Shown one piece after another: positions 11,306 through 28,645 of a stretch of 28,645 nucleotides of DNA. This DNA is from Corallococcus exiguus. GTDB taxonomy: Bacteria; Myxococcota; Myxococcia; Myxococcales; Myxococcaceae. Where the stretch lies: NCBI RefSeq assembly GCF_012985235.1, contig NZ_JABELB010000107.1; one strand, 5' to 3'. A program made the translations under genes and the position numbers. Under the pieces are notes generated by a model that searched no databases, was not told where the DNA came from, and saw nothing but the letters and a program-made list of their open reading frames with translations. Every line of letters begins with the position of its first letter. Within the stretch, counting starts at the first letter, position 1.

Positions 11306-14300
11306 CTACCGGCGCGCCTTGCGAGCCGGCTTGCCCCGAGTGGTCTTCTTCGCCGCGGCCTTCTTCGCGGCGGTCTTCTTCCCCGCCGCCTTCTTCGCCG
11401 AAGCCTTCTTCGCAGGAGCCTTCTTCACCGCCGCCTTCTTCGCGGCCGTCTTCTTGCCCGCTGCCTTCTTCGCGGAAGCCTTCTTCGCAGGGGCCTTCTT
11501 CGCGGCGGACTTCTTGCTCGCCGCCTTCTTCGCGGAGGCCTTCTTCGCAGGGGCCTTCTTCACCGCCGCCTTCTTCGAGGAGGCCTTCTTCGCAGGGGCC
11601 TTCTTCACCGCCGCCTTCTTCGCAGGGGCCTTCTTCGTCGGAGCCTTCTTCACCGGCTTCGCCGAACCCTCCGGAGCCTCGCGGGCGTCGCCGCCCTCCT
11701 TGGCCCGGTCGAACTCGCGCATCGCGTCGTCCACGAGGCCCATGCTCATGTACGCGACGCCCAGGTCGTGGTGGTCCGCCGGGGACAGCCCTTCCTTGGT
11801 GCCCTCGCGCAGCTTGTTGAGGGCCTCCTCCACCACCGGATCCGCGGCCTGGGGCGCCTGCGAAGCCTCTTCGGCTTCAATCTCGCCCTTCAGCTCCTGG
11901 CCCAGGTTCACCGCATCGTCCTTCGGTGCCTGCGGCTCGGTGGCCACCTTCACATGGGCGCTCTCGGGCGCGGGGGACTCGGACGCTTCAGGGGCTTCGG
12001 ACTCGGTGCTGCCCGGCAACGGCGACGGCGTCTCGGACATGGGGGGCTCCGGGGCGATGCGCTGGAGGTGATCCTGCAGCTTGACCGTGCGCTCCTGGAG
12101 CTCCGCCACCCGGGCCTTGTCCTTCTCCACCACGTCCGGCGGAGCACGGGCCACGAAGTTCGGGTTGTCCAGCTTGCGCTGCAAACCGGTGAGTTCCTGC
12201 TCGGAGCGGACGATCTCCTTCTTCAGGCGGTCGCGCTCCGCGTCCAGGTCCACCAGGCCCGCCAGGGGCACGTAGATTTCCAGGTTGCCGCTCACGAACG
12301 CCGCTGCCTGCGGAGGCTTGGCGCCCGGGGGGCCCACCACCACCTCGGACAGGCCCGCGAGCGGCATCAGGTACGCGCGCCAACGCTCCAACAGCTCGCG
12401 CGTCGTCGCGTCCGGGCTCTGCACCACCGCCTTCACCTTGGCGGACGGCGGCAGGTTGCTCTCGCCGCGCAGCGTGCGCAGGCCCTCGATGGCCGCGATG
12501 ACCGGCGCCATCTCGCCTTCCGCGGCCGCGTCCACCCACGCCGTCTCCGGCGCAGGGTACGCCGCGATGCAGATGCTCTCCGTGGGCCGGGACATCGGCA
12601 GCTTCTGCCAGATCTCCTCGGTGATGAACGGCATGAACGGGTGCATCAGCCGCAGGATGCGGTCCAGGCACGTCACCAGCACCGCGCGCGTGGTGTCCTT
12701 GGCCTCCGCGTCGTCGCCGTACAACGAGCCCTTCGCCAGCTCGATGTACCAGTCGCAGAACTCCGCCCACAGGAACTGGTACAGCGTGGACGCGGCCTCC
12801 GCGAAGCCGAACGCCTCCAGCGACGCGCGCGTCTCCTCGGTGGCCTTCTGCAGGCGGGAGAGGATCCACCGGTCCGCCAGCGTCAGCTTGCGGCCCTCCA
12901 GCGGCGTCTTGTCCAGGCTGAAGTCGCCCATGTTCATCAGGGCGAAGCGGCTGGCGTTCCACAGCTTGTTGCAGAACGCCTTGTAGCCACCCAGGCGGTC
13001 CATCGACAGCTTGATGTCACGGCCCTGCTGCGTGAGCGACGCCAGCGTGAAGCGCAGCGCGTCCGCGCCGTGCGCGGGCATGCCCTGGGGGAAGCGGTTG
13101 CGCAGCGACGGCTGCAGCGACTCCGCCTTCGCGCCGAGGATGACGTCCAGGGGATCGATGACGTTCCCCTTCGTCTTGGACATCTTCTCGCCCTTCTCGT
13201 CGCGCACCATCGCGTGCAGGTACACGGTGCGGAAGGGCACGTCGTTCATGAAGTGCAGGCCCATCATCATCATCCGGGCGACCCAGAAGAAGATGATGTC
13301 GTGGCCCGTCTCCATCACTGACGTCGGGTAGAAGGTCTGCAGGTCCGCCGTCTGCTTCGGCCAGCCCAGCGTGGAGAACGGCCACAGCGCGGACGAGAAC
13401 CAGGTGTCCAGCACGTCCGGATCCTGCGTCAGCTCCTTGCCGCCGCACTTCGGGCAGGACTCCGGCGCCGTGCGCGACACGATGACGTCCGCCGTGTCCT
13501 TCGAGCGCTCCTCCGCCGGGGTGCACGCCGCGCAGTACCACGCGGGGATCTGGTGGCCCCACCACAGCTGGCGGCTCACGCACCAGTCGTGGATGTTGTT
13601 CATCCAGTGGAAGTACGTGTTCGTCCACGACTCGGGGACGAACTTCGTGCGGCCCTCCTCCACGGCCTGGATGGCCGGCTTCGCCAGCGGTTCGATCTTG
13701 ATGAACCACTGCGGCGACAGGCGCGGCTCCACCACCGTGGTGCAGCGCTGGCAGGTGCCCACGTTCAGCTTGTGCGGCTCCTCCTTCTCCAGCAGGCCCA
13801 GCTCCGTCAGGTCCGCCAGCACCTGCTTGCGCGCCTCCCGGCTCTCCAGGCCCGCGTACTTGCCGGTGTCCTTCGTCATCCGCGCCGCTTCGTCCAGGAT
13901 GGACAGCATCGGCAGCTTGTGGCGCAGGCCCGTCTGGTAGTCGTTGAAGTCGTGCGCGGGCGTGACCTTCACCACGCCGGTGCCGAACTCCATGTTCACC
14001 AGCTCGCCGTCCGCGATGACCGGAATCTCACGGTCGGTGAGCGGCAGCGCCACGCTCTTGCCGATGAGGTCCTGGTAGCGCGGATCCTCCGGGTGCACGG
14101 CGACGGCCGTGTCGCCCAGCAGCGTCTCCGGGCGCGTCGTCGCCACGGTGAGGAAGCGCTCCGTGCCCTTCACCGGGTAGCGGATGTGCCAGAGCGAGCC
14201 GTTCTTCTCCTCGTGCTCCACTTCCAGGTCGGAGAGGGCCGTGCGGCAGGACGGGCACCAGTTGATCAGCTTCTGGGCCCGGTACATCAGGCCCTCTTCG

Positions 14301-14800
14301 TACAGCCGGACGAACACCTCGCGCACCGCGGCCGAGGACTGCTCGTCCATGGTGAAGCGCTCGCGGCTCCAGTCCAGGGACGCGCCCAGGTAGCGGTGCT
14401 GCTCACCGATGCGCGCGCCGAACTTGCCCTTCCACGTCCAGACGCGCTCGAGGAACGCCTCGCGGCCCAGGTCGTGGCGGCTCTTGCCCTCCGTCTTCTT
14501 GAGCTCCTTCTCCACCACCATCTGCGTGGCGATGCCCGCGTGGTCCGTGCCCGGCAGCCAGAGCGCGTTGAAGCCGCTCATCCGCTTCCAGCGCGTGAGG
14601 ATGTCCTGGATGGTCGCGGTGAGCGCGTGGCCGATGTGCAGGCTGCCCGTCACGTTGGGCGGCGGCAGCACGATGCTGAACGGCGGCTTGGAGGAAGGGG
14701 CTTCGGCGCGGAAGTAGTCGCGCTCCAGCCAGTGGTTGTACCACCGCGCCTCCACTTCGGAGGGCTCGTAGGCCTTGGACAGTTCAGTCGTGTCAGTCAT
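11306..14800 (-). CDS. valS: Valine--tRNA ligase with a C-terminal extension of about 230 aa ending in a Lys/Ala/Pro-rich pentapeptide-repeat tail
   Basis: Class I signatures are present ([14 protein letters not shown] as [12 protein letters not shown] as KMSKS). The editing and anticodon-binding regions and the C-terminal coiled coil are typical of ValRS. An acidic or TPR-like segment and about 20 copies of KKAxA extend the protein to 1164 aa. Confidence 0.93.
11319..11650 (-). repeat. Coding tandem repeat (15-bp unit GCCTTCTTCGCNGNN on the + strand) encoding ([15 protein letters not shown])n at the C-terminus of ValRS
   Basis: Read directly from the sequence: there are about 20 units with a higher-order periodicity of about 75 bp. 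Confidence 0.85.
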
Positions 14801-14853
14801 TGCAAGCGGCCGGCCCCCGACGGGGCCGGCGGGGAATCAGAGGGGACTGCGAA

Positions 14854-16116
14854 TCAATGCTGGGTCTCGCGGTCCTTGATGAGCCGCTCCAGCTCTTCCC
14901 GGATGATGGTCTCCGCCAGCTGCGGAACGACCTCCCAGGCAATCTTCTCGATGACCTCGCGGGACGCCTTCGACAGCGCCTCGCGCAGCAGCGCCTCTCC
15001 GCCATCCGCGGCCGGACGGGCGCGCGCGGGCGGAGTCGCCGGCGAGGGACCGCCGATGTCCAGGGAGATCTCCTCCGCGCCGCTGGGCTCGGGCAGCGAG
15101 TCCTCGATGCGGATGCTCTCCGTGCGGGCCTGCGCGGCGGGAGGGGCGGCCGGAGCGCCCAGCCCGAACGGATCCCGGGCACGGGCGGCCGGAGGCACCG
15201 CGGCGGGCGGGGGCGCGGACGGCAGCGGCGCGGCGCCCGGAGGACGCGGGAAGCCGCCCGGGATGTTCGGGGCGCCAGGGCCCGGAGGACGCGCGGCCAT
15301 GCCCGGAGGCGGCGCACCCGGCGGACGCGCGCCCGGAGGCACGGCACCCGGAGGAGGACGCGCACCCGGCGGCATGGCGCCCGGAGGCGGCGCACCCGGA
15401 GGACGCGCGCCCATGCCCGGAGGCGGCGCACCCGGCGGAGGACGTGCACCCGGCGGCATGGCGCCCGGAGGCGGCGCACCCGGAGGACGCGCGCCCGGAG
15501 GAACAGCGCCCGGCAGCGGACGCGCCGCACCCGGAGGAGGAGGCACACCGGCGCCCGGAGGACGCGCGCCCGGAGGCGGCGCACCCGGCGGAGGACGCGC
15601 ACCCGGCGGCATGGCGCCCGGAGGCGGCGCACCCGTGGGACGCGCACCCGGCGGCACGGCGGCGGCGGGCGGCGCGCTGACCGGAGCGCTCGGGGCGGAG
15701 GTCTGGGGCAGAATGCGCGTCGCGGCGGACGCGGGCATCGTGTTGGACTTCTGGCCCACCAGCGCCTTCACCTTGTCGAGGAGGATCTGGCTCTCGAAGG
15801 GCTTGGTGATGTGGTCATCCGCCCGGGCGGCCTTCGCGCGGTTCTCGTCGAACGCCTCGAAGGTGCCGGCGAGCAGCAGCACCGGGATGGCCTGCGTGGA
15901 GGGGTCGCCCTTGAGCGCCTCGCAGACCTCGTAGCCGCTCTTGCCCGGCATCATCACGTCGGCGAGCACCACGTCCGGACGCAGCTCGCGCGTGCGGGAG
16001 ATGGCGTCCAGCCCGTTGTCCACCGCGGTCACCTGGAAGTCTTCCGTCGCGAAGATCATCCCGATCACCTTGCGGATGGTGAGCGAGTCGTCGGCGATCA
16101 GTAGATTCTTGGGCAT
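14854..16116 (-). CDS. romR: RomR-like response regulator: CheY-type receiver, long proline-rich repeat linker, conserved acidic C-terminal domain
   Basis: The receiver domain is LLIADDSLTIRKVIGMIF ... VVLADVMMPGKSGYEV ... DHITKPF. The linker holds about 8 copies of PPGARPPGAPPPGAM. The C-terminal block is EALLREALSKASREVIEKIAWEVVPQLAETIIREELERLIK. This architecture matches Myxococcus RomR. Upstream ATGs at 16140 and 16200 are alternative starts. Confidence 0.65.
   Translation of the reverse strand: MPKNLLIADDSLTIRKVIGMIFATEDFQVTAVDNGLDAISRTRELRPDVVLADVMMPGKSGYEVCEALKGDPSTQAIPVLLLAGTFEAFDENRAKAARADDHITKPFESQILLDKVKALVGQKSNTMPASAATRILPQTSAPSAPVSAPPAAAVPPGARPTGAPPPGAMPPGARPPPGAPPPGARPPGAGVPPPPGAARPLPGAVPPGARPPGAPPPGAMPPGARPPPGAPPPGMGARPPGAPPPGAMPPGARPPPGAVPPGARPPGAPPPGMAARPPGPGAPNIPGGFPRPPGAAPLPSAPPPAAVPPAARARDPFGLGAPAAPPAAQARTESIRIEDSLPEPSGAEEISLDIGGPSPATPPARARPAADGGEALLREALSKASREVIEKIAWEVVPQLAETIIREELERLIKDRETQH
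15200..15700 (-). repeat. Coding tandem repeat (about 45-bp unit) specifying the PPGARPPGAPPPGAM proline-rich linker
   Basis: Near-identical CCCGGAGGCGGCGCACCCGG(C/A)GGACGCGCGCC(C/A) units are visible on the + strand. Confidence 0.8.
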
Positions 16117-16233
16117 CGGCTCCGGCCTCGGGGGGCGCATACCCCCCTGAATTCGTTTGAGATTTCGGGCGAGCAAGCCTGCCTGCACGCCCTGTGTCAA
16201 TCGGAGAAGCTTAGGATTCGCGCGTTGGGCCGA

Positions 16234-24332: not shown

Positions 24333-26732
24333 TCAGGCGGCGCGCGAGCCCTTGTCCTCGAAGTAGGCGCGGCGGGCGCGGGCGCAGGTGGGGCACTGCC
24401 ACTGCACCAGGGTGAGGTGGCGGTCGCCCAGGACGACGGCCTCGTGGCGGAGCGACTCCCGTGGGGCCTCGCTGGTGGCTCCGCAGGCGCAGCGCAGCCG
24501 GCCCAGCGTGGAGAGCAGCTCCTGAGGGCTGGTGATGGGGATGGCGGACCCGGCGCTGTCGCCCCGGTGGTCCGCGTCGAACTTGCGTGCGAAGGCGCGG
24601 CGCCGGCCCCAGGCGCGGCCCTTTCGCCAGAGCGCCACCGGGCCGCCCTGCGCGATGACGAACCACAGCACGAGGCACGTCGCGATGACGCCCAGGAGGA
24701 TGGCACCCGCCTCGCCGGACGGAACGGACGAGGCCTGGTGGCGGGCGGCCCGGCTCCTGAGTTGGATGGCGTAGCCGCGCTGGGCCTCGGTGGCGCGCAC
24801 GGCCTTCACGTACTCGGCGATGCGCTCGGGCGGGACCGAGTCCGCGGTGCTGCGGTAGCTGTAGTCGAGCAGCAGCGTCTTGCCTTCGGCGCGGGTGTCG
24901 GCCACGAAGCGGAAGGCCGGACCGTCCACGACCTCGTACTCCGTTTTGACAGGGGGCAGCTCGCCGGCCTTCAGCGTGATGCGGTGGCGGGCGAAGACGG
25001 GGTGCTCCACCTCCAGCGGGAAGGCGCGGTGGGAGTAGTTCGGCACGGCGAGGTGCTGGCGGAGGCCATGCGCGCGGAACTCCCGGCGACCGTCCGAGGT
25101 CCAGAAGTCCTCGATGCGGTAGTGCTCTTGCGTGACGAGCACGTTCGTCACGGTGTCGTCGTCCACCGACATGGGCTTCGCGATGGAGATGTCCGCGTCC
25201 GTCTTCGCGTAGTAGTTGAAGTAGAGGCGGGACACCTCGGACAGGGACGTGCCCGCGAGCGCGCGGCGCATGGAGTTGGCGTCCGCCCCCGTGCGCGTGG
25301 TGACGACGTCGAGTGTCGCGGCCCCGTCGCGGCCCATCGCGACGTAGGTCTCGTCCACGAAGAGGGAGGGCTCCGTCAGCGTGGGCGTGGGGATGACGGA
25401 GAGCGCCGTGGTGGCGGGGGCGACGAGGAGGGCCCGGCCGTAGGAGGGCGGCTCGTAGCTTTCCAGCCCGCCGCGCTCCAGCGTCGCCGTGGGGTCCACC
25501 CACAGCTCGCGGCCGGCCACGGTGGCGTGGACGATGACGTGGTTGAACGCGGTGGCGGTGGGACGCAAGCCGTCCAGCAGCTGCGTGAGGTCCGTGCTCA
25601 CGAGCGCCGGCTGCGCGTCGATGCCCAGCCCCTTGAGGAGCGACACCAGGAGGAGCGACTTGTCCTTGCAGTCGCCGAAGCGGCGCTGGAGGACCTCGTC
25701 GGGCGGATGGGGCTGGTGGGAGTTGGGGCCCATCTCGATGCCCAGGTAGCGCACCTCGTCCTGGACGAAGCGAAGCGCGGCGAGGAAGCGCGCCTCCGGG
25801 GTGGGCTCCTTCGACAGCCGGCGGACCTCCTGCTCCAGCGACTTCGAGCGGGTGGGCACCTGGAACAGCGTGGAGGCCCAGCGCGCGACGTCGTTCCAGT
25901 CCTTGTATTCGCTGAACTGGATCCACGGGTAGACGGGCTGCCAGCCGGGGACGTTGTCCTCGTGGCGGACCGCGGGCACGTGGCGGCGCTCCAGGATGAT
26001 TTCACGCTCGCCGTTCAGCATCGACTCCGAGCGCGACAGGCCCGGCGCGGCGAAGTCCCGGATGAAGAGCGTGCGACCCCGCCCTTCCGGCCACAGCAGC
26101 CGGTAGGCGAAGTGGACCACGGGATAGGAATGGCCCACGCCAACGACGTCGGAGAAGCGGCCGCCAAAGACGGGGTTGGCGCCTTCGAAGGAGTACGCGA
26201 CCTCCACGGTGTCGCCCACCCGCACGTCGCGAAGGAAGGGCACCACGGAGAGGTTGCCGTTGTAGAGCCGGTTCTGGAGCTCGGTCTCCTGCTGGATGAC
26301 GCGGGCCTCGGCGGGCTGGAAGACGTCCTCGCGGCGGCCGTCGCGGATGCGCCAGATGCCGTGGACGGTGAGCTTCTGGTACGTCGGATCGAAGCGGAAC
26401 TGGATGTCCGTGACGCGGTCGATGCCCCGCGGCGAGAGGACCTTCTGGGCCGAGTGCAGGTAGTGCACGCGCGATGGGCCGGACACGCGCACCTGTTCCT
26501 CGATCAGCAGCCGGGAGACGCTGGTCTCCTCCTCGCCCTCGGGAGTCGGGCCGGGGTCTGGAGGAATGGGAAGCGGCTTCACCCACGCGGCGGGAGGCCC
26601 GACGCGGAACGGCCTGGCGTTCGTCGCCGCCGGAGCTGCCCCGGCGCTCAAGGACAGACACAGACACAGCAGCAGGACGGGCACCGGAAAGAAGCCCGGT
26701 GCCAGGAGGACGGAACGGAAGGTTCGGCGCAT
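24333..26732 (-). CDS. DUF3857/transglutaminase-like cysteine-protease-fold protein with signal peptide, a C-terminal transmembrane helix and a cytoplasmic Cys4 zinc-ribbon
   Basis: The signal peptide is MRRTFRSVLLAPGFFPVPVLLLCLCLSLSAGAA. The transglutaminase core is RRFGDCKDKSLLLVSLLKGLGID ... FNHVIVHATVAGRELWVDPT (Cys-His-Asp). The TM segment is AILLGVIATCLVLWFVIAQ, followed by CACG...CPTC. An upstream in-frame ATG at 26816 is an alternative start. Confidence 0.75.
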   Translation of the reverse strand: MRRTFRSVLLAPGFFPVPVLLLCLCLSLSAGAAPAATNARPFRVGPPAAWVKPLPIPPDPGPTPEGEEETSVSRLLIEEQVRVSGPSRVHYLHSAQKVLSPRGIDRVTDIQFRFDPTYQKLTVHGIWRIRDGRREDVFQPAEARVIQQETELQNRLYNGNLSVVPFLRDVRVGDTVEVAYSFEGANPVFGGRFSDVVGVGHSYPVVHFAYRLLWPEGRGRTLFIRDFAAPGLSRSESMLNGEREIILERRHVPAVRHEDNVPGWQPVYPWIQFSEYKDWNDVARWASTLFQVPTRSKSLEQEVRRLSKEPTPEARFLAALRFVQDEVRYLGIEMGPNSHQPHPPDEVLQRRFGDCKDKSLLLVSLLKGLGIDAQPALVSTDLTQLLDGLRPTATAFNHVIVHATVAGRELWVDPTATLERGGLESYEPPSYGRALLVAPATTALSVIPTPTLTEPSLFVDETYVAMGRDGAATLDVVTTRTGADANSMRRALAGTSLSEVSRLYFNYYAKTDADISIAKPMSVDDDTVTNVLVTQEHYRIEDFWTSDGRREFRAHGLRQHLAVPNYSHRAFPLEVEHPVFARHRITLKAGELPPVKTEYEVVDGPAFRFVADTRAEGKTLLLDYSYRSTADSVPPERIAEYVKAVRATEAQRGYAIQLRSRAARHQASSVPSGEAGAILLGVIATCLVLWFVIAQGGPVALWRKGRAWGRRRAFARKFDADHRGDSAGSAIPITSPQELLSTLGRLRCACGATSEAPRESLRHEAVVLGDRHLTLVQWQCPTCARARRAYFEDKGSRAA

Positions 26733-26910
26733 GGCGGAAGGGCGCTCATCATGGAGCCCGGATGACGCGCCGGGCAAGGCGCCCCCTGGGACACCGGGCG
26801 AGCGGCCCCGCTTCATTCACCAGTGAAAACCGCCATGCAGGCCAAGCCTGGAATTGCCGTGACACGGGCTAGGGTTTCGGCCATCGGTTGGACGGCCCAG
26901 GAGGCTGGCG

Positions 26911-27879
26911 ATGGTCAACGTGAGGCAGGTCGCGACGCGGCTGAAGGGTGCGTTCCTGGCGGACCCGGAGCGCTTCTATACGAACGAGACGGGAGCCTGG
27001 GTGGCGGGGATGCCGGCGCCGAGCGACATCCGGGTGACGACAGGCCGGGAGCCCTTCTGGATCAACCTGGGCTACTGGAAGCACGTGGAGAAGGTGGACG
27101 ACTCCAACGTGGAGCGCGTGGGGGAGCTGTTCCGGTCCGCCCAGGCGGAGATGGCGCGCCTGTTGGCGAGGACGGCGAAGCTGGGGCCTGGGGATGCCGT
27201 CTTGGACTGCGGCTTCGGGTACGCGGACCAGGACCTGCTGTGGGCGGAGGAGTTCAAGCCCGCGAGCATCGTCGGGGTGAACATCACGCCGAACCAGGTG
27301 AAGGTGGGCCGGGAGCGCGTGAAGCTGACGGGGCTGGAGGGCGTGATCCGGCTGGAGGTGGGGAGCGCGACGGCGCTGCCTGGGCCGGAGGGAGCGTTCG
27401 ACGGGGTGTTCGCGCTGGAGTCCGCGATGCACTTCCGGACGCGGCAGGACTTCCTGCGCGAGGCCTTCCGGGTGTTGAAGCCGGGAGGCCGGCTGGTGAT
27501 GGCGGACATGGCGCAGAAGACGGACCGTGAGGCTGGAGCAGGACTCCGAGCGCGGCTGCGCTACCGCTACTGGCGGGGGCTGATTGCCTTCCCGGAAGAG
27601 AACGTCTGGTCGACGGAGCGCTACCAGTCGGAGCTGCGGCGGGCGGGGTTCCAGGACGTGAAGGTGGAGTCCATCGCGGAGGATGTGTACCCGGCGGTGA
27701 ACACGGCGCTGGTGGCGCTGCGGGGCATGACGCAGCTGGAACGCAATCCAGGGAGCACGTCCCTGCACCAGGTGCGCGCGGACGTGCACAAGGCGATGCG
27801 GATGACACCGGAGCAGCTCCAGTGGCCCGCGCTGTTCAACTGCGACGAGTACGCCGTGGTGTCCGCGCGCAAGCCGTGA
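26911..27879 (+). CDS. Class I SAM-dependent methyltransferase
   Basis: GGAGG lies 9 nt upstream of the ATG. Motif I is AVLDCGFGYADQD, the post-I acidic residue is VGVNIT, and motif II/III is GVFALESAMHF ... LKPGGRLVMAD. Confidence 0.8.
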   Translation: MVNVRQVATRLKGAFLADPERFYTNETGAWVAGMPAPSDIRVTTGREPFWINLGYWKHVEKVDDSNVERVGELFRSAQAEMARLLARTAKLGPGDAVLDCGFGYADQDLLWAEEFKPASIVGVNITPNQVKVGRERVKLTGLEGVIRLEVGSATALPGPEGAFDGVFALESAMHFRTRQDFLREAFRVLKPGGRLVMADMAQKTDREAGAGLRARLRYRYWRGLIAFPEENVWSTERYQSELRRAGFQDVKVESIAEDVYPAVNTALVALRGMTQLERNPGSTSLHQVRADVHKAMRMTPEQLQWPALFNCDEYAVVSARKP

Positions 27880-27921
27880 CGGTGGTTGACGGACTGGGGC
27901 GGAGCGGCGGTAATCGGAAGC

Positions 27922-28020
27922 GGTAGGGCCTCCGGACCTGGTGGCCGGCCCGGTCTTCAAAACCGGTGAGGGGCTGCGAGAGCAGTCCCTGGCGAGTTCG
28001 ATTCCCGTGCCCTACCGCCA
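27922..28020 (+). tRNA. selC: tRNA-Sec (selenocysteine, anticodon UCA), 99 nt including the encoded CCA
   Basis: The 8-bp acceptor stem is GGTAGGGC/GCCCTACC, with discriminator G and CCA. The anticodon stem-loop is CCGGT-CTTCAAA-ACCGG, giving U33 and anticodon TCA. A long variable arm (GGGGCTGC-GAGA-GCAGTCCC) is present. The T-arm is GCGAG-TTCGATT-CCCGT, which has one A·C mismatch but otherwise parallels the E. coli selC T-arm. The 8/5 geometry and extra arm are tRNA-Sec hallmarks. Confidence 0.75.
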
Positions 28021-28086
28021 CACCTCTGCAATCCGGTTAGCGATTCATCGTCACCAGCCAGCAGCTACCAAGAGGTCGACGCACAA

Positions 28087-28476
28087 ATGCCACAGGATAA
28101 GGAAAGTGGCGCAACTGCCGCTCAATGGGGCCGTGATACAGCTCGACAGCTCGCCGAAAAGCTAGGAGCCAAGCCACTCAGCAACATCTCGAATGAGGCG
28201 CTACTCGACGACGAATTGATTGTGATCAAGTGCGCCAAACCTGACACCGACACCGTCGGTGTCACCTTCAAGATGCTTGCACGCGTGTCCCGCGTATTCG
28301 GTGCTTTCCAACAGAGCGACGGCAGCTTTGACATTTGGTCACTACCGTCCAGCATTTATTCCAAACATACCCGCGAGTCGGCCGGTCGCGGCTCATCCGC
28401 TGGAAAGTATGGGCTCGTACGACGAGACGCGTTCCTCTCACTTGGAGTTCACATCGGGACAGTCCGGCTCCCCTAA
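28087..28476 (+). CDS. Hypothetical protein in a lower-GC segment immediately 3' of tRNA-Sec
   Basis: This 129-aa ORF has codon usage and GC (about 54%) clearly different from the roughly 70% of the rest of the window. I see no recognisable motif. Confidence 0.35.
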   Translation: MPQDKESGATAAQWGRDTARQLAEKLGAKPLSNISNEALLDDELIVIKCAKPDTDTVGVTFKMLARVSRVFGAFQQSDGSFDIWSLPSSIYSKHTRESAGRGSSAGKYGLVRRDAFLSLGVHIGTVRLP

Positions 28477-28518
28477 GCCAACCGGAGTAATTCCGTTCAG
28501 GGGTACGCTGCGTTGGTA

Positions 28519-28645
28519 ATGAGCAGCGTGCGCCGGAAGAGGCCCCAGCAGGGCGTGCGGCTAACTGCCGGGCAGCGGCGCCTCCTGACAGGGCTGCTCC
28601 GCCGCGGCGGGCAGCAGGGAGTGGCGCTGCGTGCCGCGGCTCTCC
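28519..28645 (+). CDS. 5' end of an ORF running off the window (Arg/Gln-rich N-terminus, possibly an HTH transposase-like protein)
   Basis: The ATG at 28519 (MSSVRRKRPQQGVRLTAGQRRLLTGLLRRGGQQGVALRAAAL) is open to the end of the window, and high GC resumes here. Function was not determined. Confidence 0.25.
   Translation, partial: MSSVRRKRPQQGVRLTAGQRRLLTGLLRRGGQQGVALRAAAL

Follow-up and report, generated by a model that had tools for sequence, protein, structure and literature searches.

Does the DNA directly downstream of the selenocysteine tRNA (tRNA-Sec) gene selC of Corallococcus exiguus belong to an integrated element? The question arose from a stretch of 28,645 nucleotides (here referred to as the window; contig NZ_JABELB010000107.1 of assembly GCF_012985235.1), for which an inspection of the letters alone (the sequence-only reading) had proposed that an element is integrated at the 3' end of selC. 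We compared this locus with corresponding loci of other Myxococcaceae and with metagenomic contigs. The answer that we favor, with a probability of about 0.7, is that a functional selC gene is followed by the flank of a hypervariable hotspot, made up of a low-GC patch that carries a single gene, ORF129, and was probably delivered by an integrase, and of a member of the IS630 family of insertion sequences (IS) that inserted subsequently. The following features are central to the argument.

27922-28020, plus strand: selC, the tRNA-Sec gene with anticodon UCA and an encoded CCA end (identified by ARAGORN, Rfam RF01852, fold, and conservation).
28021-28086, no strand: low-GC stretch that separates ORF129 from selC and forms the tRNA-facing margin of the acquired patch (delimited by the end of homology to congeners; shared with the metagenomic contig L020 alone).
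28087-28476, plus strand: ORF129, an open reading frame (ORF) of 129 amino acids (aa), solitary, of an unannotated family with a predicted PD-(D/E)xK fold (identified by the GC content at third codon positions [GC3] and by homologues).

Homology among Corallococcus genomes ends at the 3' end of selC

The window contains a methyltransferase gene (26911-27879) whose product shares 95% protein identity with an enzyme of Corallococcus coralloides. A search with this methyltransferase retrieved 19 Myxococcaceae loci, including eight Corallococcus loci with the same methyltransferase-to-tRNA-Sec order. In a BLASTN comparison of positions 26001 to 28645 with all loci, the window was 79 to 92% identical to each Corallococcus locus up to positions 28020 to 28026, past which there was no match to any of the eight. 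The flank seen in the window is absent from the selC site of these eight congeners, and ORF129 is also absent within 4 to 10 kb there. Breakpoints that fall within a few bases of the CCA in all eight comparisons are characteristic of elements that integrate site specifically into tRNA genes, to judge from the alignments. The principle of this type of integration has been described (PMC4383910, PMC2704930), and selC is well known as an integration site in enterobacteria (PMC6174562, PMC7545054).

The composition changes at the same point. The GC content over 28021-28476, starting directly after the CCA, is 0.564, the lowest in the whole window, whereas the full set of 480-bp windows upstream of the tRNA has a mean of 0.696 with a standard deviation of 0.035, resulting in a z score of -3.8 for the patch. 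The DNA directly after selC is thus compositionally foreign. The abrupt decrease in GC content noted in the sequence-only reading was confirmed, although the values given there (about 54% over about 480 bp) have to be corrected to 56% over 455 bp.

The DNA downstream of selC in the eight congeners was found to be mutually unrelated, with the pair L006 and L017 as the sole exception, and even two strains of Corallococcus exercitus (L003 and L018) differ in their selC flanks. Low-GC stretches (0.49 to 0.65) directly follow selC in six of the eight loci (L001, L002, L004, L005, L006, and L017). In L006 and L017, a tyrosine recombinase of 381 aa starts 112 nucleotides (nt) after selC (Phage_integrase PF00589, 1.7e-8; phrog_1 integrase, 3e-19). 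Low-GC cargo and a primase-like protein with DUF3854/DUF5906 come next. The presence of a tyrosine integrase at selC in two species indicates that selC is a real integration hotspot in Corallococcus.

Several of these flanks contain further recognizable genes. The segments 11244-16798 of L006 (Corallococcus llansteffanensis) and 11218-18521 of L017 (Corallococcus interemptor) are related elements at selC, and the variable low-GC cargo of the latter includes a GTPase and a DUF4145 protein. In L004 (14307-20868) and L018 (7076-10527), the region 3 to 7 kb downstream of selC contains genes of an extracellular contractile injection system, with an eCIS_core domain and sheath- and tube-like N termini.

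A variable flank might also arise in the absence of site-specific integration, through IS-mediated or illegitimate recombination and deletions, in which case the tRNA gene would appear to be a boundary simply for being the last strongly conserved sequence. An IS is indeed present in the flank, and neither an integrase nor a repeat of an attachment (att) site is visible in the window. In addition, the first 12 to 15 nt after the CCA are weakly similar in the window (28021-28035, CACCTCTGCAATCCG), L020 (596-608, CCCCTGTAATCCG), and L004 (11111-11127, CTCATCCCTCTGATCCG) before the sequences diverge. This very short stretch might be what is left of the native tRNA trailer or of an att core; if it is the trailer, the break would lie just outside the tRNA. 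However, (i) homology ends 0 to 6 nt from the CCA in all eight congeners, whereas random breakpoints should scatter, (ii) integrases are found at selC in two species, and (iii) the junction between selC and ORF129 recurs in L020 next to a different upstream gene. We consider rearrangement of this kind unlikely.

The tRNA-Sec gene is conserved and predicted to be functional

The identification of a tRNA-Sec gene at 27922-28020 by the sequence-only reading is borne out by two programs. ARAGORN called this gene as the sole tRNA of the window (tRNA-SeC, anticodon TCA at position 36), and the only Rfam family matched in the window was RF01852 (tRNA-Sec), which aligned over its full length (1-91/91) to 27922-28016 with 70.5 bits (E = 9.7e-13), compared to a gathering score of 47. 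The RNA folds with a minimum free energy of -52.5 kcal/mol (z = -3.1) into the bacterial 8/5 architecture, namely, an acceptor stem of 8 bp (8/8 paired), a T stem of 5 bp with one A·C, a D stem of 6 bp with one bulged A and a 4-nt loop, an anticodon stem of 5 bp, and a variable arm of 9 bp with a GAGA loop. The discriminator G96 precedes the encoded CCA, and the gene ends in ...GTGCCCTACCGCCA.

All 99 nt are identical in six of the eight Corallococcus genomes, and the other two copies contain only paired changes in the anticodon stem or the variable arm. The tRNA-Sec of L020 is identical at 89 of 99 positions, and its 10 differences are mostly compensatory. When the cloverleaf was counted on an alignment of five sequences including L020, 97.7% of the cells were paired; sliding the partners by 1 to 3 columns as a control caused pairing to collapse to 36 to 50%. 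Seven pairs showed changes on both sides, and none of 500 shuffles reached the observed covariation score, in a test based on only four distinct sequences.

The A·C mismatch of the T stem had been noted previously as a feature to be checked against a sequencing error or a nonfunctional copy. The mismatch is present, as A74·C84 of the 99-nt gene at the fourth T-stem pair, and occurs in all eight Corallococcus genomes compared; in the divergent L020 this pair is A-U. A defective tRNA would be compatible with this single non-Watson-Crick T-stem pair and with several D-arm positions that are noncanonical according to Rfam. Since all eight Corallococcus genomes share the A·C and seven pairs have changed in a compensatory manner, the gene appears to be neither misread nor dead; furthermore, the sequence is identical in six independent assemblies, the Rfam score is well above the threshold, and this is the sole tRNA-Sec at a conserved locus. 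A pseudogene or a sequencing error is thus extremely improbable. The alignments instead suggest that the A·C is a fixed lineage feature of a tRNA under purifying selection and that selC is a genuine, functional gene in the Corallococcus chromosome.

A candidate promoter was identified from the alignment of the window with L020.

27886-27914, plus strand: promoter-like boxes upstream of selC, namely, TTGACG (27886-27891) and GGTAAT (27909-27914), separated by a 17-nt spacer.

The two boxes are the sole conserved blocks in an otherwise divergent upstream region, and the second ends 7 nt before the 5' end of the tRNA. They may form the selC promoter, an assignment made with low confidence; a consensus scan of 27700-28645 called neither a promoter nor a terminator and did not call these boxes. 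The genes selA, selB, and selD as well as genes with an in-frame TGA and a selenocysteine insertion sequence were sought within the 28.6-kb window, and none was found; a literature search for selenoprotein use in Myxococcus gave nothing usable. The other genes of the window have ordinary core functions.

ORF129 is a solitary cargo gene of a widespread family

The sequence-only reading had noted an ORF with atypical codon usage in the low-GC DNA, and this ORF proved to be a real gene. The GC3 of ORF129 is 0.60, compared to 0.93 in the adjacent methyltransferase gene. A first search returned six homologues of 128 to 132 aa with 48 to 91% identity, a scan of JGI metagenomes added 56 further loci, and a profile search retrieved at least 195 clusters (at 90% identity), all of about 129 aa, all annotated as "hypothetical," and without a Pfam domain. 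That so many homologous clusters share the same length indicates that ORF129 is a real gene. Its family occurs widely in metagenomes from soil and sediment, with conserved positions that include M1, Q3, D4, G8, G15, S35, N36, E37, K48, G58, M63, L64, G102, V111, and F116. No match was found in Pfam, PHROGs, PADLOC, or NCBIfam, nor among PDB sequences in a profile search. Exact-sequence look-ups with the methyltransferase and with ORF129 gave no match. Phage and plasmid collections contained nothing similar at the DNA or protein level, and neither the ORF129 family nor the IS end described below had a match in the IMG/VR viral contigs.

We then compared the genomic contexts of 62 ORF129 loci and found no conserved neighbor; the gene thus appears to be solitary cargo that is not part of a fixed operon. 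Two candidate explanations were rejected on this basis. The lack of a conserved neighbor spoke against a fixed system of two genes (for example, a restriction-modification pair), and a dedicated selC-targeting module was dismissed for the same reason and because none of the 56 metagenomic copies is located beside a tRNA. On the three long contigs examined, the homologues are all within mobile islands, no more than 6 kb from a tyrosine integrase or an integrase arm-binding domain.

L082-85: tRNA-Leu(CAA), integrase, Xre/HTH_17, IS3, ..., ORF129 homologue, AbiEii.
L086: HTH_17 and an integrase arm-binding domain (Arm-DNA-bind_4) near the ORF129 homologue.
L088: Phage_integrase and a toxin-antitoxin gene near the ORF129 homologue; an IS630 copy is present in the variant L089.

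Additional copies in L022 and L036 follow type I restriction genes. The metagenomic contig L020 has the arrangement seen in the window, that is, a tRNA-Sec gene, a 64-nt spacer, and ORF129 (91% nucleotide and 91% protein identity), with the gene of a TetR regulator in place of the methyltransferase gene upstream. Directly after its ORF129 homologue, L020 encodes a SitA5 polymorphic lipoprotein toxin (1190-2509; NF050093, 3e-98), split over two called ORFs; this family has been described from myxobacteria (PMC5562445, PMC8546572).

The methyltransferase gene of the window is 72 to 79% identical at the nucleotide level to those of more distant Corallococcus species and other genera. Since ORF129 is 91% identical between the window and L020, the comparison suggests that the sharing of this gene postdates the divergence of the hosts. 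Its GC3 is about 0.6 in both hosts, whereas host genes have values of 0.86 to 0.94. The two copies differ by 18 synonymous and 12 nonsynonymous codons, a pattern that would fit a gene still under purifying selection. These data also bear on the possibility that vertical inheritance, without horizontal transfer, accounts for ORF129 and its spacer, which would then be native DNA with an unusual composition. The same arrangement beside selC in L020 speaks for vertical inheritance, but (i) a GC3 of 0.60 is far from the value of about 0.93 for the genes of this genome, (ii) ORF129 is missing from the eight congeners at selC and nearby, (iii) the family occurs in unrelated contexts and on mobile islands, and (iv) the identity to the diverged host L020 exceeds that of the neighboring gene in more distant relatives. 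A native origin is thus very improbable.

The predicted fold of ORF129 resembles that of restriction endonucleases

The predicted structure of ORF129 was compared with known structures. The comparisons gave scores of 11.6 with NhoI (116 of 129 residues aligned), 9.3 with PvuII, 9.2 with the N-terminal domain of Eco15I, and 7.7 with Hjc, and a Foldseek search agreed, with TM scores of up to 0.62. The sequence identity in these structural alignments was 8 to 16%. The model thus indicates a PD-(D/E)xK restriction endonuclease-like fold that is BisI/PvuII-like in fold only. There is no detectable sequence similarity to the BisI family or PvuII, and the PDB profile search returned neither NhoI nor Eco15I, so that ORF129 does not belong to the BisI family at the sequence level.

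In some PD-(D/E)xK enzymes, such as Cfr10I and NgoMIV, an acidic residue of the active site is relocated. In ORF129, the corresponding motif is predicted to be E37...V46-I47-K48, in which E37 (87% conserved) and K48 (95% conserved) are spaced like the aspartate and lysine of the motif; this correspondence of E37, V46, and K48 was placed by secondary structure and not by residue-level superposition. At the middle position, where the canonical motif has an acidic or amide residue, the family has a conserved valine, V46, and for this reason the catalytic activity is uncertain: the family may have a relocated acidic residue or may be noncatalytic. NhoI and Eco15I are modification-dependent enzymes of the BisI family with an active site composed of D...Q-x-K and a helix Glu (PMC11347163). 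The motif E37...V46-x-K48 differs from that of the BisI family in that a conserved Val takes the place of the metal-binding Gln/Glu. We infer that ORF129 would act as a nuclease or defense-type cargo gene.

An IS630-family element begins in the stop codon of ORF129

The sequence-only reading had correctly noted that a high-GC ORF runs off the end of the window (the GC content is 0.76 over 28519-28645). The idea that high-GC sequence resumes there as the end of an island did not hold; the ORF is not part of the host backbone but belongs to the left end of an IS.

28474-28475, no strand: TA target dinucleotide inside the stop codon of ORF129 (from a three-way comparison of junctions).
28476-28645, plus strand: left end of a putative IS630-family element, with a transposase ORF that begins with the ATG at 28519 and continues past the window end (from P0121, the match to L092, and the junctions).

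The 42 visible residues of the terminal ORF are Arg rich and gave neither a Pfam match nor a homologue in a k-mer-filtered search. A full HMMER scan of 1.84 billion representatives yielded two homologues, P0121 (183 aa; 93% identity over all 42 residues, E = 7e-13) and P0122 (78% identity). P0121 contains the Pfam domains HTH_23, HTH_29, HTH_32, and HTH_33, and its best NCBIfam match is NF033545 transpos_IS630 (1.7e-26, covering the N-terminal 127 of 299 positions); it also aligns with the DDE_3-bearing transposase of L089.

The boundary of the element was established by comparing three junctions. The window and L020 diverge exactly at the stop codon of ORF129. L092, the contig that encodes P0121 and originates from the same metagenome as L020, matches window positions 28473-28645 at 90.8% and has an unrelated gene upstream of that point.

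Window junction: ...GGCTCCCC-TA/AGCCAACCGGAGTAATTCCG... (short form, CCCC-TA/AGCCAACCGG).
L020 junction, empty site: ...GGCTCCCC-TA/GTACGCCGAAC... (short form, CCCC-TA/GTACGCC).
L092 junction, the same IS at another locus: ...CCAGGGTC-TA/AGCCAACCGGAGTAATTCCG... (short form, GGTC-TA/AGCCAACCGG).

The three junctions place the start of the IS at 28476 in the window, and at two independent sites the IS end comes right behind a TA. TA dinucleotides are the target of IS630/Tc1-mariner elements. The stop codon of ORF129 is TAA in the window and TAG at the empty site of L020, and the insertion left the protein intact. Both the N-terminal HTH domains of the close homologue and the TA target point to the window-end ORF as part of the left end of an IS630-family element. 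The features shared with this group are the HTH_23/29/32/33 domains of the 93%-identical P0121, the transpos_IS630 match, and insertion at TA at two sites; the element is known from its left end alone, and the DDE_3 domain, the right inverted repeat, and the TA duplication would lie outside the window.

Apart from the copy in L092, the IS end was not found a second time, either in the window or in the other loci. The copy in L092 (887-1825, minus strand) ends after about 165 codons at an IS66-like transposase gene on the opposite strand, suggesting nested IS elements. The hexapeptide AGKYGL is common to ORF129 and the tail of P0121 and was dismissed as a coincidence because L092 has no homology to ORF129.

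Origin of the selC flank

The history that we propose consists of two steps. A genomic island would have integrated at the 3' end of selC by means of a tyrosine recombinase, most likely delivering the low-GC patch at 28021-28475 with ORF129. Later, an IS630-family element transposed into the TA of the ORF129 stop codon, changing TAG to TAA and leaving the frame intact. All of the window DNA to the right of selC is accessory, laid down in two events. For the integrated element proposed initially, this means that foreign DNA absent from eight congeners does abut selC, but that an intact element was not demonstrated. We infer integrase-mediated integration at the selC gene of the window from the position of the break and the elements of the congeners, and the visible patch is what remains of a decayed island or, alternatively, the margin of a larger one on the side of the tRNA.

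A number of observations weigh against this history. (i) The visible sequence downstream of selC amounts to only 625 bp, and these contain no integrase. (ii) No direct or inverted repeat of at least 12 nt of the tRNA 3' end was detected in the window or nine related loci, in a search that covered the window, L020, and the 4 to 10 kb downstream of selC in the congeners. The integrase gene and tRNA repeat that the sequence-only reading had suggested looking for are thus both absent from the window, and since the available flanks hold no such repeat, no island boundary was mapped. (iii) Classical islands in tRNA genes (tDNA) usually have the integrase beside the tRNA, as do L006, L017, and L082, whereas in the window this position is occupied by ORF129. 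(iv) None of the 56 metagenomic ORF129 loci adjoins a tRNA; because the other homologues are not beside a tRNA, a single acquisition, and not repeated targeting, may account for both copies next to selC. (v) The taxon of L020 is only deduced from its SitA5 gene and GC3. (vi) The nuclease motif of ORF129 is without its canonical middle residue, as described above. A flank conserved at the same position in a related sequence, without an integrase or an att repeat, was observed only for the metagenomic L020 and for none of the eight congeners.

Within the favored history, and included in its probability, is the case of an intact, still mobile integrative element at selC, in which ORF129 would be tRNA-proximal cargo and the integrase, excisionase, and right attachment site (attR) would lie past the end of the window. 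In L006 and L017, selC is indeed occupied by elements with an integrase, ORF129 homologues are close to an integrase or arm-binding domain on all three long contigs, and ORF129 itself is intact, with substitutions relative to L020 that are compatible with purifying selection. On the other hand, nothing in the window shows a mobile element and no att repeat was found, the sister contig L020 runs on into the SitA5 toxin gene and not into integration genes, and an IS is already located at the edge of ORF129, as is typical of decaying islands. An intact element is therefore possible but doubtful. Because the integrase and the displaced tRNA fragment would lie beyond the available sequence, we file the locus as a tRNA-linked accessory patch and not as a mapped island.

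Among known systems, the locus resembles the classical selC islands of enterobacteria and tDNA islands in general. As in the enterobacterial selC islands (the locus of enterocyte effacement and others in Escherichia coli; PMC6174562, PMC7545054, PMC2704930), foreign DNA of atypical GC content abuts the 3' end of selC, what is found at the same tRNA locus differs from strain to strain and from species to species, and IS elements are found in the flank. However, those islands comprise 3 to 60 kb, with a P4-type integrase beside selC and flanking direct repeats, whereas the window shows a 455-bp single-gene patch and an IS end, without integrase or repeat, in a myxobacterial host and with nonvirulence cargo. 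The breakpoint at the tRNA 3' end, the intact tRNA, and the tyrosine integrases of congeners (L006 and L017) correspond to the concept of tDNA islands underlying Islander (PMC4383910), but the pair of a regenerated tRNA and a displaced 3' fragment was not found in the available sequence. Finally, the window and the elements of C. llansteffanensis and C. interemptor share the locus, 3' of an identical or near-identical selC, and low-GC cargo; their flanks have no sequence similarity to that of the window, which has no counterpart of the integrase 112 nt from the tRNA.

Other features of the window

Four further regions of the window were noted. (i) Positions 7435-9714 (minus strand) encode a 759-aa bacterial homologue of the eukaryotic Major Vault Protein, with the Pfam domains Vault, Vault_2, Vault_3, Vault_4, and MVP_shoulder (9e-45). 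(ii) Positions 15281-15675, in a stretch with a GC content of 0.79, hold an imperfect tandem array (periods, 15 and 84 nt) inside overlapping long ORFs (14793-16200) of Pro/Gly/Arg/Ala-rich low-complexity sequence. (iii) About 20 copies of a 15-nt unit with a 45-nt superperiod occupy 11345-11655, at the 3' end of a 1,164-aa ORF (11306-14800, minus strand) with an N terminus that resembles valyl-tRNA synthetase; the repeat would give rise to a repetitive Lys/Ala-rich C-terminal tail. (iv) The second-lowest GC content of the window (0.577) was found at 3330-3810, a divergent intergenic region between a LysM/VgrG3-like_C gene (1942-3660, minus strand) and an unannotated 344-aa ORF (3749-4783, plus strand).

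Significance for myxobacterial genomes

Nothing at the selC locus challenges the current understanding of tRNA-linked islands. What is mildly novel is the ORF129 family, which lacks annotation, and the role of selC as a hotspot in Corallococcus; otherwise, this is an ordinary tRNA-linked hotspot. A more far-reaching proposal combines two claims, namely, that ORF129 represents a new mini-nuclease family with a noncanonical E...V-x-K site, acting as an island-borne, stand-alone, and possibly modification-dependent defense gene, and that selC is a previously unreported major accessory-genome hotspot in Corallococcus and related myxobacteria. Taken jointly, these claims are speculative, and we advance them only tentatively.

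The value of these data lies in the annotation and comparative genomics of myxobacteria. The selC gene would be functional in spite of a fixed A·C in its T stem, and its 3' flank holds different accessory DNA in each species and even strain, comprising integrase elements, kinases, contractile injection genes, a SitA toxin, a nuclease-like orphan, and IS copies. It is reasonable to regard the ORF129 family as a candidate for a new restriction-type or defense gene that stands alone.

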